From the UHGV virus genome UHGV-1555466: a DNA stretch of 43,198 bases. One strand, 5' to 3'. The notes beneath the pieces are model-generated. The model had not been told where the DNA came from. It searched no databases and saw only the letters and a list, made by a program, of their open reading frames with translations. A program made the position numbers and the translations under genes. This DNA is from a virus. Below, piece by piece: positions 695-43,191 of this stretch. Position 1 is the first letter of the stretch; each line of letters opens with the position of its first letter.

Positions 695-955
695 TTAAAT
701 TTTATCCGCGTGATGCATCAGCACAAATTTATCCCACAACTGTTCTTCCGTCTCGACATGTTGCGGATCCTTCACAATAGTATTGGGGATCGGGCACACC
801 TTCTGGCAGGTTGGTGTCTCGTAGTGCCCTACGCATTCGGTACACTTATCGCTGTTAATCTCATAGATATGATCGCCCATTGAAATCGCCTCATTCGGGC
901 ATTCGGGTTCACACATATCACAATTAATACAGCGTTTAGTAATTAGTAAAGACAT
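695..955 (-). CDS. yfhL: YfhL 4Fe-4S cluster ferredoxin (reconstituted across attL; first ~10 codons phage-derived)
   Basis: 86-aa ORF with CxxCxxCxxxCP ferredoxin motifs matching E. coli YfhL; N-terminus reads MSLLITKR versus MALLITKK in the fragment at the attR end. Confidence 0.9.
908..925. repeat. attL core (18-bp direct repeat, ttcacacatatcacaatt)
   Basis: Exact 18-mer repeated at 43144-43161; both copies lie in yfhL codons for CINCDMCE. Confidence 0.65.
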
Positions 956-1164
956 TTCAATGAATTACCGTTAAATCATTTTAAAAATCAGTAAGTTGTA
1001 TCGAGTTTGTATGCTTTACTGTCATTAACTTACTGTATGTTGATCCAGTGTATTTAACCTTGATAAACTCAGTCCAGTAACACAAAGCCGCAACACATTG
1101 CATTTTGTCCCGTAGAAAAGACTTGTATGTGTGTGCTTGTTTTCTGCGCCTACGCAGATAAGGA

Positions 1165-2568
1165 TTGAGAATGCCGCGCACTGTAACACATAATCCGGAT
1201 AGCCCCAATAATGACGATGTTTTAGCCGCATCTGAAAAATGGGACGCCTGTAAACCCCCCTATACCAGCGCACACATGAAAATCTGTGTTGCTGCCGCCA
1301 AAATCATCCTCGCTGCTTCCGGCGTGGCTCGCCGTTCCAAATACGAAAAAGAGAACTATCTCCGTATCGATTTCAGCAAAGCCGGTAAGGTTACATTTTA
1401 CGCCGAGTTTCCAAAAAAGATGGGCCTCAAAGGTAAAAAGCTCGGCGAGTGGCCGGAGCTCGCTATCCAGCTGGCGCGCGAAAAAGCGCTAGGTATGGCT
1501 GACGGTGGCCTGCGGGCAGAGTCCGTACATGCAGCGCTGGAAATGTACCGGGATGACCTCAAAGCCAAAGTCGCCCGGCAGAAGCTGAGCCCGGACAGTT
1601 TCACAACCTACGGGGTGCGTATCGACCGGATTAAAGCAACGTTCGGCGAGCGCGAGGTGTTCAGCGACGTAACATACAATCGGCTGGTGGAAGTGCTGGA
1701 CGAGTGGATCGCTACTCGCTCGAACAATAACGCCCTGGAGTTGTTTGCCGAGCTCTGTCGGTTCTGGAAGTTCTGCGCACCTACTCTTTGCAACGGCCGC
1801 AATGTTGCCGCCAGTCTGCCAGATGATTATGTTTCCTCCCGCGTACAGAAACCTACCCCCACACGGCTTTTTACCGATATTGAATCAATCGCCCGACTCT
1901 GGCTCAATGTTGCTGCCTGCACCTCTGTACACCAGAAGAATGCTGTTCGCTTCATGATCATCACTGGTGTTCGTCCGATTAATGTCCATAACCTGCGCTG
2001 GGACTACGTTCACGAGGAGGCTGGTGAAATTGTTTATCCGGAAGGGGTTATCGGCATGCGAGGGGCTATGAAAACACAAAAGGCTTTCCGCCTGCCGATA
2101 ACCCCTGAGATCCGGCGGATTATCGACGAGCAGAAAGCCTGGCGTGATTCAGTTCCTGAGTGCAACAGGGATTATGTATTTTTGCAGCCACGTGATCCAA
2201 TGCAGCCATTTTCAAAACGATCACTGGATAAGCTGGTGAAAACATACAGCCCGGACGGGGCTGTAAAAGGAATAAAACATGATGGGACTGTTAAAGGGAA
2301 AGACGGTGCATTTAATACGATGTGCCGTAAATTCCTTAAGAGCAATGTTATTGCCTTGATGAAGGAAAGAGGCTATTCCCGCTCAGACCGAAGGGAAATC
2401 AGCCTCCTTTGCCTTCACCACTCCAGCAAGTCAGATGACCCGATGGCAGAACATTACGACTTTTCTGATGAGATTTTACAGGAAGAGATTGCGTTGAAGC
2501 GCGAAGCTTTCGAGGCTCACGAGCGGAGCATACTTGCGCAGGTGGCATTGCTACGGCGGCGAGGTTAA
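1165..2568 (+). CDS. putative phage integrase (divergent tyrosine-recombinase-like)
   Basis: 467-aa ORF directly inside attL; C-terminal region has candidate R..H..Y catalytic residues (RFMIITGVRP, LHHSS, AEHY); family call is inferential. Confidence 0.6.
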   Translation: MRMPRTVTHNPDSPNNDDVLAASEKWDACKPPYTSAHMKICVAAAKIILAASGVARRSKYEKENYLRIDFSKAGKVTFYAEFPKKMGLKGKKLGEWPELAIQLAREKALGMADGGLRAESVHAALEMYRDDLKAKVARQKLSPDSFTTYGVRIDRIKATFGEREVFSDVTYNRLVEVLDEWIATRSNNNALELFAELCRFWKFCAPTLCNGRNVAASLPDDYVSSRVQKPTPTRLFTDIESIARLWLNVAACTSVHQKNAVRFMIITGVRPINVHNLRWDYVHEEAGEIVYPEGVIGMRGAMKTQKAFRLPITPEIRRIIDEQKAWRDSVPECNRDYVFLQPRDPMQPFSKRSLDKLVKTYSPDGAVKGIKHDGTVKGKDGAFNTMCRKFLKSNVIALMKERGYSRSDRREISLLCLHHSSKSDDPMAEHYDFSDEILQEEIALKREAFEAHERSILAQVALLRRRG

Positions 2569-2765
2569 TACTGGCTGCGACATTTTTGAATAAAAGCGTC
2601 GATATTTCGGCGCTCATAACGAACTACTTTTGCACTGAAACGAATTGGTGCCAGGATAGCCCGATGACGATGCTTAATATTCCACTCACATAGCGTTTTC
2701 TGTGTAATACCTAACTTTTGGCATACTTCATCCGGGGTGAGTAAATCGTCGGGTTTCTCGCTCAT
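2565..2765 (-). CDS. AlpA/excisionase-family HTH DNA-binding protein (putative Xis)
   Basis: 66 aa; LLTPDEVCQKLGITQKTL HTH then PIRFSAKVVRYERRNIDAFI, typical of the AlpA/Xis family; last gene of the leftward operon, 4-nt overlap with the helicase. Confidence 0.65.
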   Translation of the reverse strand: MSEKPDDLLTPDEVCQKLGITQKTLCEWNIKHRHRAILAPIRFSAKVVRYERRNIDAFIQKCRSQY

Positions 2766-4156
2766 GCTATACCTCTCTTTTTCATGGCATCGAGCAGGAT
2801 GTCCTGCACTGTTCGTTTTGAGTTGCGCCGCTCCATCACCATTTCATCCATAGTGTCGGCAGCAATAATGTGGTGAATAAATACCGGACGATTGTGTCCG
2901 GCCTGTATCTGCCTGGTGGGGCCGATACGTTCAATAATTTGCTGATATTGCTCCAGGTCCCACCAGTGTGAGAAAAATACCAGTATATTTCCGCCGTCCT
3001 GCATGTTCAGGCCGTGGCCCGCGCTGGCTGGGTGTGCAAAGAGAACAGGAATCTTTCCGGAATTCCAGTCGCGCAGTGTCTGTGGATCCTGGTCGAGGTG
3101 ACGACCGCGAGGGAATGCTTTAAGCAAGCGTTCAAGATCGTGTTTCCAGTGATAAGCAACCAGCACAGGTGCGCCAGCTGCTTCGGTCAGTATGCTGTCC
3201 AGCGCCTGTAGTTTGGTGTCATGCAGTTCTGACCAACTTCCGGTGTCATCTGTGTATACTGCGCCGCTGGCGATTTGCAGACACTTCAGTGTCTTTGCCG
3301 CGGCGTTCGGTGCTTCGATGCCTTCGCCATTCAGCTCGAGGAACATTTCCTTTTCCATTTCACGATACTGCTGACGGGCCTTCGGTGGCATATCCACGCG
3401 GATTACGTTATGGATGGGGTCTTTGATATCGAACCAGTCGGCCGCATCCAGCGAGAGGGTTACATCGGCTAACGCTCGCTGTATTTCACCCTGTGAGTGA
3501 GCAAAAGGCTCCAGTTTGGTCCAGCTCTGCCCCGGAAACTGTATCGAGTTGAACCAGCGTGAGGTAAACGCGCCGTAAGTGCGCCCGAGACGTTGCCCCT
3601 GGTCCACAAACCACGATTGTCCCCACAAATCTACCAGGCCGTTCGGTGCTGGCGTACCGGTGAGATTTATCCAGCGCCGGACATACTTATGCGCCACTTT
3701 GCCCAGCGCCGCCGCGCGCTTACCACCACCGCGCAGCCGGAAGGATTTTAGCCGGGTGCTTTCATCTGGAATGACAGTACCGAACGGCCATCGTTCTCCC
3801 AATTCTTCAATCAGCCAGACAAGGTTATCGTAGTTGATGGTGAACACGCTTGCGTTGCTGTTCGTCAGCGCCATAGAGCGCGCTTTGGCATTACCAATAA
3901 TTGGCTGCACCTCGATATTGCGCAAATGTCCCCACTTCAGTGCTTCATCCGGCCATGTGCTGGCAGCCACGCGCAGCGGCGCGAGGACCAGTGCGGGGCA
4001 TGTTTCTGCCCCTGCCATAAAGAGATCTTCCAGCGCAGTGAGCGTTGCCACGGTTTTACCCATTCCCATCCCCGCCCAGATGTTGCCGCGCAGGGTTTCG
4101 GTTTCGTGGTTGATAATGAGAACTTGGTAGGGGCGAGGTATATATTTTGGGGGCAT
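2762..4156 (-). CDS. SNF2-family helicase (phage replication/recombination)
   Basis: Walker A GMGKT, DEST(DExx) box, LTGTPAPNG motif III, C-terminal helicase domain. Confidence 0.8.
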   Translation of the reverse strand: MPPKYIPRPYQVLIINHETETLRGNIWAGMGMGKTVATLTALEDLFMAGAETCPALVLAPLRVAASTWPDEALKWGHLRNIEVQPIIGNAKARSMALTNSNASVFTINYDNLVWLIEELGERWPFGTVIPDESTRLKSFRLRGGGKRAAALGKVAHKYVRRWINLTGTPAPNGLVDLWGQSWFVDQGQRLGRTYGAFTSRWFNSIQFPGQSWTKLEPFAHSQGEIQRALADVTLSLDAADWFDIKDPIHNVIRVDMPPKARQQYREMEKEMFLELNGEGIEAPNAAAKTLKCLQIASGAVYTDDTGSWSELHDTKLQALDSILTEAAGAPVLVAYHWKHDLERLLKAFPRGRHLDQDPQTLRDWNSGKIPVLFAHPASAGHGLNMQDGGNILVFFSHWWDLEQYQQIIERIGPTRQIQAGHNRPVFIHHIIAADTMDEMVMERRNSKRTVQDILLDAMKKRGIA

Positions 4157-4218
4157 ATAATATGGCTCCTAAACAACAAAAGGCCAATTTAGACCTTTTG
4201 TTGTTTTAAAAATGTTAT

Positions 4219-42669: not shown

Positions 42670-42936
42670 CTACTGGAGCAGGCTACCTGATTGTCGATCG
42701 ATTCCTGCGTCCATATAGTCGATGGTCTTCTGGAGCTCTTCGATTAGGGCAATAGCTTTTGCTCGAGAAATGCATATTAGTTGATCCGGAAATTCTTGTA
42801 AGGGCCAGTTTGGTATACAGGCCATGTTATCAGTGAAGGATGCAGACAAGTAAACTTCATTGGTAACTAGGGAATAGCTTACCTCAAAATTGGTGAGTTC
42901 CGGCAAACTGCTAACGTTTGATTCTTTTCTGCGCAT
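42670..42936 (-). CDS. hypothetical small protein (AT-rich cargo gene)
   Basis: 88-aa ORF upstream of, and co-oriented with, the 281-aa gene. Confidence 0.45.
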   Translation of the reverse strand: MRRKESNVSSLPELTNFEVSYSLVTNEVYLSASFTDNMACIPNWPLQEFPDQLICISRAKAIALIEELQKTIDYMDAGIDRQSGSLLQ

Positions 42937-43078
42937 AATATTATCCAGGACTGTAATTATGTACAGTTAATGGTCTTCAATTTCGAAGAGGGAGTCAAGG
43001 GGGAGTCTCAAATGAACCTTTATAGAAAGGGGAGCTCTTTGTGTTGCTGAACGTATGCAAAATTTTTTTGCACCATAA

Positions 43079-43102
43079 ATTCAATAACACATTCAATAAC
43101 AC
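43079..43102. repeat. tandem 12-bp direct repeat (attcaataacac x2) next to attR; candidate integrase arm-type sites
   Basis: Two exact tandem copies; related AACACA(TT) motifs occur in the attL arm (about 1085-1120). Confidence 0.4.
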
Positions 43103-43134
43103 ATTACTGCATCACCATGAAAATAAATGTATTT

Positions 43135-43191
43135 TTATTTAATTTCACACATATCACAATTGATGCATTTTTTAGTGATTAACAGCGCCAT
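43135..43191 (-). pseudogene. yfhL: displaced original 5' end of yfhL (16 native codons then stop)
   Basis: Minus-strand ATG at 43191 encodes [16 protein letters not shown] then EIK-stop where the frame leaves the core into phage DNA. Confidence 0.6.
43144..43161. repeat. attR core (18-bp direct repeat)
   Basis: Exact copy of 908-925. Confidence 0.65.

Follow-up and report, generated by a model that had tools for sequence, protein, structure and literature searches.

What becomes of a conserved host gene when a prophage is found inside its coding sequence is the question raised by virus genome UHGV-1555466, a stretch of 43,198 nucleotides (hereafter, the window) that carries at its left end the 3' portion of the ferredoxin gene yfhL, at its right end the displaced start of the same gene, and phage DNA between them. 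Insertion at yfhL has been reported before. Bobay et al. (2013, PMC3603311) list yfhL among prophage-interrupted genes and count it as disrupted, and the gene was described as a "newly identified" site of Shiga toxin (Stx) prophages in 2023 (PMC10675304) and again in 2025 (PMC12029490), the 2023 study defining the insertion site simply as the gene beside the integrase. The paper on Serratia phage vB_SspS_OS31 (2020, PMC7556043) places that phage in a homologous ferredoxin gene with a 23-bp repeat, and states that many prophages are located in homologous ferredoxin genes. These reports contradict an earlier note on this DNA, made from the letters alone, which knew of no description of yfhL as an integration site. 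Nowhere in the searchable text of the literature is yfhL said to be restored and not disrupted, and our literature search found nothing linking yfhL to a genomic island. The evidence presented here makes it highly probable that the window contains a myovirus prophage inserted by site-specific recombination in codons 10-16 of yfhL, and that a 5' end carried by its attP site rebuilds the open reading frame (ORF).

The window contains exactly two copies of the 18-mer TTCACACATATCACAATT, both on the same strand as direct repeats (908-925 and 43144-43161), and no third copy was found there even when up to two mismatches were allowed. Two copies were obtained in none of 100 dinucleotide-preserving shuffles, for which the expectation was 0.01. 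Since only 37 bp of the window remain beyond the second repeat, the right flank for the empty-site comparison was taken from NZ_AP022003.1 (locus L001), which shows 13 base differences from the window over 43,198 bp. When positions 300-907 of the window were joined to the sequence starting at 43144, the resulting 1228 bp aligned in one piece and with 100% identity to the shoB-yfhL-yfhH region of CFSAN061763 (NZ_CP042899.1), and this unoccupied locus has one copy of the 18-mer. The two junctions are identical only within the 18 bp. A chance repeat was considered and is ruled out by the shuffles and by the single copy in the empty site; the presence of one copy there and two in the window consequently identifies the repeat as the duplicated core of a site-specific insertion. 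The uninterrupted arrangement is the common one, shoB-yfhL-yfhH being contiguous in 5252 of the 5426 complete E. coli genomes and interrupted in the other 174. In the host left flank of the window we found the ohsC antitoxin small RNA at 21-97 on the minus strand (Rfam RF02495, 99 bits; E. coli flank) and the shoB toxin gene at 420-500 on the plus strand (RefSeq annotation), which together confirm that this flank has the usual acpS-shoB-yfhL surroundings. No tRNA genes were found in the window.

At the left junction (attL) the gene is whole. The chimeric gene is annotated by RefSeq, in a near-identical copy, as intact yfhL, and its product matches positions 1-78 of 80 in the NCBIfam equivalog NF033683, "YfhL family 4Fe-4S dicluster ferredoxin", with 135.7 bits (cut-off 86). 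On the yfhL coding strand attB and attP have AATTGTGATATGTGTGAA in common, 18 bp that correspond to codons 10/11-16 of 86. Ahead of this segment the phage arm reads ATG TCT TTA CTA ATT ACT AAA CGC TGT ATT, and its host counterpart ATG GCG CTG TTA ATC ACT AAA AAA TGC ATC. These first 30 bases differ at 11 positions (19/30 identical) and only two residues are changed, A2S and K8R, both conservatively; six of the differences fall in five synonymous codons and the other five give the two replacements. Similarity between phage and host begins exactly at the ATG, with none upstream of it, and the phage P' arm beyond the core is unrelated to yfhL. By the comparison of the junctions, attP thus contains yfhL codons 1-16, and no more of the gene, as a diverged copy in the correct frame. 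At the right junction (attR) the stub of the original gene still lies behind its native upstream region and yfhH. The earlier note had proposed much of this arrangement, and it is borne out here: an exact-match count returned the coordinates it gave for the 18-bp repeat; the alignment to an unoccupied yfhL locus that it had called for was made, and the repeat proved to be duplicated at the insertion boundary; translation, junctions and empty site agree with a prophage inside yfhL that supplies an in-frame N-terminus and keeps the ferredoxin ORF intact; translation from 43191 confirmed that the original start is left at the right end as a fragment running into a stop; and both of its peptide readings were reproduced when the minus strand was retranslated from 955 and 43191.

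A search of genomes for other elements integrated in yfhL, also suggested by that note, recovered the same integrase gene and P arm (926-2568) in 160 of the 5426 complete E. coli genomes, always as a single chromosomal copy with at least 92% identity; the match overlapped the yfhL annotation in all 40 of the 40 rows sampled from these 160 genomes. The attR junction, together with 294 bp from the P' arm, was common to 124 E. coli genomes. There is a gap of 14 genomes between the 174 with an interrupted site and the 160 with this integrase, and these remaining genomes may hold another element, an insertion sequence (IS) or an assembly break. One strain, NMBU_W05E18, has IS1 on the attR side. A database search detected relatives of the integrase down to 36% identity, and a family scan with one genome per species gave 36 loci with integrase homologues (36-94% identity) that span Enterobacterales, Vibrionales, Aeromonadales and Alteromonadales. 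The genera include Kluyvera, Citrobacter, Shimwellia, Pantoea, Erwinia, Serratia, Providencia, Morganella, Xenorhabdus, Arsenophonus, Sodalis, Veronia, Salinivibrio, Zobellella, Oceanisphaera, Oceanimonas, Shewanella and Pseudoalteromonas. In 35 of the 36 loci a full-length yfhL ORF is found upstream of the integrase gene (int) in divergent orientation, one of the 35 being in a visibly frameshifted assembly (L027). About 215 bp separate yfhL from int in most Enterobacterales, and the distance is greater in a few distant loci. Furthermore, the module is joined to different phage bodies, among them that of the Stx2b-carrying strain STEC435 and the lambdoid siphovirus OS31 of Serratia.

The 215-bp spacer from the yfhL ATG to the int ATG was aligned for the window and 25 loci from other genera (26 loci). 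In the element-borne codons 2-10, entropy was 0.54, 0.19 and 1.08 at codon positions 1, 2 and 3, and 1.23 in the 60 nucleotides upstream of the ATG. The variation is thus mostly at third positions, the signature of DNA that moves with the element and is constrained at the level of the protein. In the core segment, codon positions 1 and 2 had zero entropy across the 26 loci from several genera. These data bear on the possibility that the phage-borne yfhL codons are a passive leftover, picked up by imprecise excision or kept as extended att homology, and not a gene-preserving adaptation. The segment is short (30 bp) and many phage att sites show patchy homology past the crossover segment, but the sharp start of the similarity at the ATG, the share of the differences that fall in synonymous codons, the conservative nature of the two replacements, the third-position variability across genera, which speaks for long-term coding constraint, and the same layout in a different type of phage in Serratia make this explanation very improbable.

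The protein encoded beside the rebuilt gene is an integrase by several comparisons. It narrowly passes the threshold of Pfam PF00589 (Phage_integrase; 30.4 bits, cut-off 27.1) over residues 246-359 and matches the PHROG family phrog_1, "integrase", with E 3e-25; NCBIfam contains no model for it or for the excisionase-like protein encoded next to it. No sequence-level match to the family was found among solved structures in the PDB, and fold comparison alone gave matches. An AlphaFold model obtained with 26 family members (mean predicted local distance difference test score, pLDDT, 82.8) has full-length lambda integrase as its best structure matches (1z1b, 1z1g and 5j0n; E about 2e-8, approximately 390 aligned columns), followed by XerA, Tn1549 Int, integron IntI and Cre. 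Residues R268, K301, R386 and H417 are invariant in the family alignment and Y429 is near-invariant, and these five probably form the catalytic set. The neighbouring 66-aa protein scores 26.0 bits against Pfam HTH_17, just below the cut-off of 27, matches the PHROG excisionase families phrog_66 and phrog_1553, and has a counterpart in phage OS31 that is annotated as an excisionase.

Both arms of attP carry (G/A)(T/C)AACACA motifs, at 1077-1084 and 1090-1097 on the P arm, and at 43084-43091, 43096-43103 and, inverted, 43040-43047 on the P' arm. The predicted layout of the arms is as expected for a lambda-like system that depends on arm sites. Close to int, an inverted copy of the core half-site is also conserved across genera (alignment columns around CATGTGTGAGC), and could be an extra core-type integrase (Int) site or an autoregulatory operator. 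The palindrome of the P arm was considered as a CI operator and rejected, since the immunity region has other repeats (ATGCGTTATCG-type). Together, these features suggest the following sequence of events. A lambda-type tyrosine integrase, with an arm-binding N-terminal domain and a catalytic domain, would insert the phage at yfhL codons 10-16 by means of an attP centred on the diverged copy of the first 16 codons, the last 18 bp of which, identical to the host, would be the crossover core. At attL the product is a full-length YfhL with A2S and K8R, in which host codons 17-86 continue the phage 5' end in frame, and at attR it is the orphaned host 5' end, with a stop after 18 codons. Int would bind the core and the AACACA arm sites, IHF would bend the DNA at 986-998, and the helix-turn-helix (HTH) protein would act as excisionase. 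The choice of near-invariant CxxCxxC codons as target may allow the same module to work in many hosts, and the carried fragment would spare the cost of losing the ferredoxin. We infer that the chimeric yfhL continues to be expressed and to function, and that the element may still excise.

Several observations weigh against this reading. Within the integrase family alignment the histidine of the HxxR motif is not evident, residues 383-386 being TMCR with T383 in its place. One of the 36 loci (L026; Raoultella scottii NZ_JARXNH020000036.1) has an integrase 90% identical to that of the window and unrelated DNA upstream of it, with no yfhL or CINCDMC fragment in the 1.5 kb before the integrase gene; this exception may reflect a rearrangement, a tandem array or the use of a different site. 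The other points concern the expression of the chimeric gene and the mobility of the prophage.

As to expression, after integration the native upstream region, a 55-bp spacer and yfhH, is 42 kb from the chimeric yfhL, and consequently transcription of the latter must begin in phage DNA. A consensus sigma-70 scan of the minus strand at 956-1300 found no promoter, so that the intact ORF could be poorly expressed or silent. A relaxed weight-matrix scan of the 26 aligned loci gave a weak minus-strand candidate, TGGACT-18-TACACT (about 1073->1044), that is confined to the window and its closest relatives and is not conserved in position beyond them. The weight-matrix scan also gave a rightward candidate for int, TTGATC-18-TAAACT (1040-1069), found at the same alignment columns in most loci, and the int direction is the only one with a position-conserved promoter candidate in the aligned loci. 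The phage-provided promoter proposed in the earlier note is therefore unsupported by the strict scan and by the weak, non-conserved relaxed candidate; a yfhL promoter supplied by the phage is plausible. In the empty site, the native yfhL upstream region has no strict promoter except one before yfhH, which suggests that yfhL may normally be co-transcribed with yfhH.

These scans, the possible loss of co-transcription with yfhH, and the classification of yfhL as "disrupted" by Bobay et al. (PMC3603311) are what would be expected if the ORF were restored on paper only, the gene being silent or mis-regulated in lysogens and integration acting as a reversible switch of expression, which would be regulated gene integrity exerted through transcription. 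In active lysogeny, or regulated gene integrity, a coding sequence is disrupted and not restored; here the ORF is whole along its full length. Protein-level constraint on element-borne codons across four orders is hard to explain if the product is never made, and the start is in frame in 35 of the 35 loci that have yfhL beside the integrase gene, the copy in L027 being a frameshifted one of low quality. Moreover, the leftward early operon and any antisense transcription through int would run toward yfhL, and many real promoters escape consensus scans. For these reasons we consider silencing unlikely.

As to mobility, no excised attP and no free-phage sequence of this phage were present in the collections searched. 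Four GenBank records entitled "Escherichia phage vB_EcoM-..., complete genome" (ON470579, ON470582, ON470588 and ON470593) are 100% identical to the prophage. All four start at window position 2762, without int and the putative excisionase gene (xis), and end in the host genes yfhH, yfhB and tadA (locus L041 is ON470588 38500-42739). They were examined as induced phage genomes that would give attP and were rejected, as they are without int and have host genes at their end; by their boundaries they are mis-bounded prophage predictions and not packaged genomes. Our literature search found no paper describing these records. Furthermore, two genes of the prophage are annotated as pseudogenes, an ANR-family regulator and a truncated invertase, which makes its inducibility less certain.

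The element might accordingly be viewed as a decaying, immobile remnant that is inherited vertically, with a repeat that marks an old event and not a working att system. The two pseudogenes would fit this view, as would the finding that identical copies are mostly in related strains, many of them like sequence type 38 (ST38), and the report that Stx2b prophages at yfhL failed to induce (PMC12029490). However, all essential modules of the prophage are intact, both attP arms are conserved, and the same integrase and arm module is found on different phage bodies, in many E. coli lineages and in many genera. Immobility is thus quite improbable in our judgement, and a site-specific recombination system that may still operate is the explanation we retain.

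The spacer between int and the rebuilt yfhL has a further feature. A scan for CTG-N10-CAG sequences that agree with TACTGTATATATATACAGTA at 15 or more of the 20 positions found only two LexA-box-like sequences in the window, at 1031-1050 and 42949-42968, one in each attP arm and both with 15/20 matches to the consensus. The expectation from shuffled sequences was 0.028 per window, and two boxes were reached in none of 1000 shuffles. The first box lies between int and the rebuilt yfhL, where it overlaps the predicted promoter of int, and the second is found 13 bp upstream of a minus-strand ORF of 88 aa (42670-42936). Both the CTG and the CAG triplets are kept in only 11 of the 26 aligned loci, and consequently LexA control is a lead and not a finding. 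In phage OS31, too, a LexA site is annotated at the right end. On this basis one may tentatively propose, though we think it doubtful, that the yfhL-targeting module is an SOS-wired cassette, in which int would be induced by DNA damage independently of the CI-controlled xis operon on the opposite strand, and yfhL, separated from yfhH, would be expressed from the phage region under LexA/Int control. If LexA did bind both boxes, lysogeny would rewire yfhL and not merely preserve it.

The system that most closely illustrates this mode of integration has been described at dusA. Farrugia et al. (2015, PMC4482086) showed that integration in dusA replaces the 5' end of the target, and as in the window the dusA islands and prophages insert in the 5' end of a conserved protein gene and give it a new 5' end, the original 5' end is found at the far boundary, the integrase gene lies beside the rebuilt gene, and the elements occur in many Proteobacteria. 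The targets differ, dusA encoding a tRNA-modifying enzyme and yfhL a ferredoxin, and so does the crossover, which falls in a structural beta-strand in dusA and in a metal-ligand motif in yfhL. More generally, restoration of the target gene by a fragment carried in attP is typical of integrative elements (Mageeney et al. 2020, PMC7192596), and here too the element carries a target fragment and integration recreates a recombinant gene that is probably functional. Most classical cases swap the 3' end, unlike the present one, in which the 5' end with the start codon and translation-initiation region is exchanged. The site used by the yfhL element is an ordinary one, already reported, and integration there follows the pattern of the dusA systems, in which a 5' end is replaced. 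Phage 21 and e14, both in icd, are cases of 3'-end restoration.

Direct evidence that a phage genome can carry the first codons of the ferredoxin comes from OS31 (MT843276), the sole match when the phage collection was searched by tblastn with the integrase at E<=1e-5. Its integrase is 76% identical to that of the window, and its 23-bp repeat lies over the same CINCDMC codons of a 2[4Fe-4S] ferredoxin. The OS31 record, from DNA sequenced after mitomycin induction, opens with the 23-bp att site; after it comes ...CGCTTTGTAATTAGTAAAGCCAT, which on the other strand reads ATG GCT TTA CTA ATT ACA AAG CG(G), that is, ferredoxin codons 1-8 (MALLITKR). The phage genome itself therefore carries these codons. 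The same P-arm motifs follow the ferredoxin codons in OS31, and there is a LexA site near its other end; its body, unlike that of the window element, is that of an unrelated lambdoid siphovirus. The available text of its authors gives the site and the repeat, and not the restoration of the reading frame.

The Stx2b prophages at yfhL share the site and the integrase with its P arm with the window, and STEC435 is 99% identical to it over 926-2568 and has the same early region with SNF2, VRR-NUC and DNA polymerase genes. Unlike the window element, these prophages carry stx, and the papers on them (PMC10675304, PMC12029490, PMC3603311) either named the site as the gene beside the integrase or listed yfhL as disrupted, with no analysis of the junctions. 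With lambda Int and attP, the window has in common a three-domain fold, arm-type repeats in each of the two arms, an IHF-like site located between those of the core and of the arm, and a predicted HTH excisionase-like gene. It differs from lambda in Int sequence (identity about 13-14%), in the transcription of int away from xis and the early operon, and in an att core that lies inside a coding sequence. The sole increment over earlier work, as judged from the junctions, is that yfhL is restored and not "disrupted", as one survey had listed it. This rebuilding affects how the fitness costs of prophages and losses from the core genome are scored, and the exact att coordinates are of use for typing Stx2b and other yfhL prophages, which occupy about 3% of complete E. 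coli genomes. The analysis also exposes several "complete phage genomes" of this element in GenBank as mis-bounded prophage predictions. No new kind of biology is opened by these results.

Table 1. Coordinates of the att sites, the two parts of yfhL, the recombination module and the prophage genes in the window.
Feature	Position	Strand	Remarks
Chimeric yfhL, 86 aa	955->695	-	host codons 17-86 (695-907), core codons 10/11-16 (908-925), phage ATG and codons 2-10 (926-955)
attL core (identity/crossover segment)	908-925		coding strand AAT TGT GAT ATG TGT GAA = N-C-D-M-C-E, part of the first CxxCxxC iron-sulfur motif
P arm of attP	926-1170		yfhL codons 1-10 at 926-955; blocks position-conserved across genera (26-locus alignment)
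IHF-consensus-like site	986-998		AATCAGTAAGTTG in window; WATCAANNNNTTR in alignment
LexA-box-like palindrome	1031-1050		TACTGTATGTTGATCCAGTG; LexA-consensus scan
Predicted rightward int promoter	1040-1045 (TTGATC), 1064-1069 (TAAACT)	+	18-bp spacer; weight-matrix scan
Two direct arm-type repeats	1077-1084, 1090-1097		GTAACACA, GCAACACA; repeat finder; pair conserved across genera
Inverted copy of core half-site	1126-1133		TATGTGTG vs CACACATA at 910-917; about 40 bp upstream of int start
Tyrosine integrase, 465 aa	1171-2568	+	divergent from yfhL, beside attL
Putative excisionase/small HTH DNA-binding protein, 66 aa	2565-2765	-	
Prophage body	2762-42936		early, regulatory, lysis, packaging and structural genes
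Early block		leftward	SNF2 helicase, VRR-NUC nuclease, TIR-domain protein, family-A DNA polymerase, DUF2815, DUF2800
CI-like repressor	13570-14244	-	S24 peptidase domain
Genes after the repressor	14590-16851 (primase)		Cro-like HTH protein, primase, Q antiterminator
Lysis genes			holin, lysozyme, spanin-like protein
Packaging and head genes			small and large terminase, portal, head genes
Contractile tail genes			DUF3383 sheath-type, DUF3277 tube-type, tape measure, baseplate, tail fibres, truncated invertase
Two cargo ORFs		leftward	low-GC right end
P' arm of attP	42937-43143		predicted arm motifs and second LexA-box-like site
Second LexA-box-like site	42949-42968		GACTGTAATTATGTACAGTT
Inverted arm-type motif	43040-43047		TGTGTTGC
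Exact tandem ATTCAATAACAC x2	43079-43102		carries two ATAACACA arm-type motifs
Displaced native yfhL 5' end	43135-43191	-	ATG and 15 host codons, two phage codons, stop; 18-codon stub
attR core	43144-43161		second 18-mer copy

The prophage measures 42,236 bp between the repeats when one core copy is counted. Its gene content was established from the RefSeq annotation of a near-identical copy together with Pfam, PHROG and PADLOC scans, and a full phage gene set was found, with repressor, replication, lysis, packaging, head and tail genes. By gene content the element is a complete-looking temperate myovirus prophage. Salmonella phage SEN34, Citrobacter phage Omnitron and Hafnia phage yong1 match its structural half with 79-88% identity. 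Eleven of the 13 base differences between the window and L001 fall in the tail-fibre region at 39722-40063. The invertase beside the tail fibres (about 41204-41470) is annotated as truncated, so that the tail-fibre switch looks frozen. Among the early genes, the TIR protein at 5866-6627 on the minus strand has matches to Pfam CAP12-PCTIR_TIR (E 3e-31) and to PDC-S35 (E 1e-108), a candidate single-gene defence family in PADLOC, and a nearby low-GC ORF of 305 aa at 4219-5136 gives a weak match to a TIR effector (PADLOC, E 1e-6).

At the right end of the prophage, no strict promoter or terminator was found between the host promoter of yfhH and the truncated yfhL (yfhL') and the cargo ORFs, and read-through from this promoter into the cargo ORFs could be imagined as a speculation; the LexA-like box directly upstream of the 88-aa ORF makes such an explanation less needed. 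The right end also contains an ORF of 281 aa at 41523-42368, for which no family was found in the Pfam, NCBIfam, PADLOC or PHROG scans. It has 486 homologues in Gamma- and Alphaproteobacteria, with 55-74% identity among those aligned. Its structural model is confident and all-helical (predicted template modelling score, pTM, 0.85), with no Foldseek match in the PDB. In Enterobacter, a homologue of this ORF follows a type I restriction-modification operon on an island that bears an integrase.

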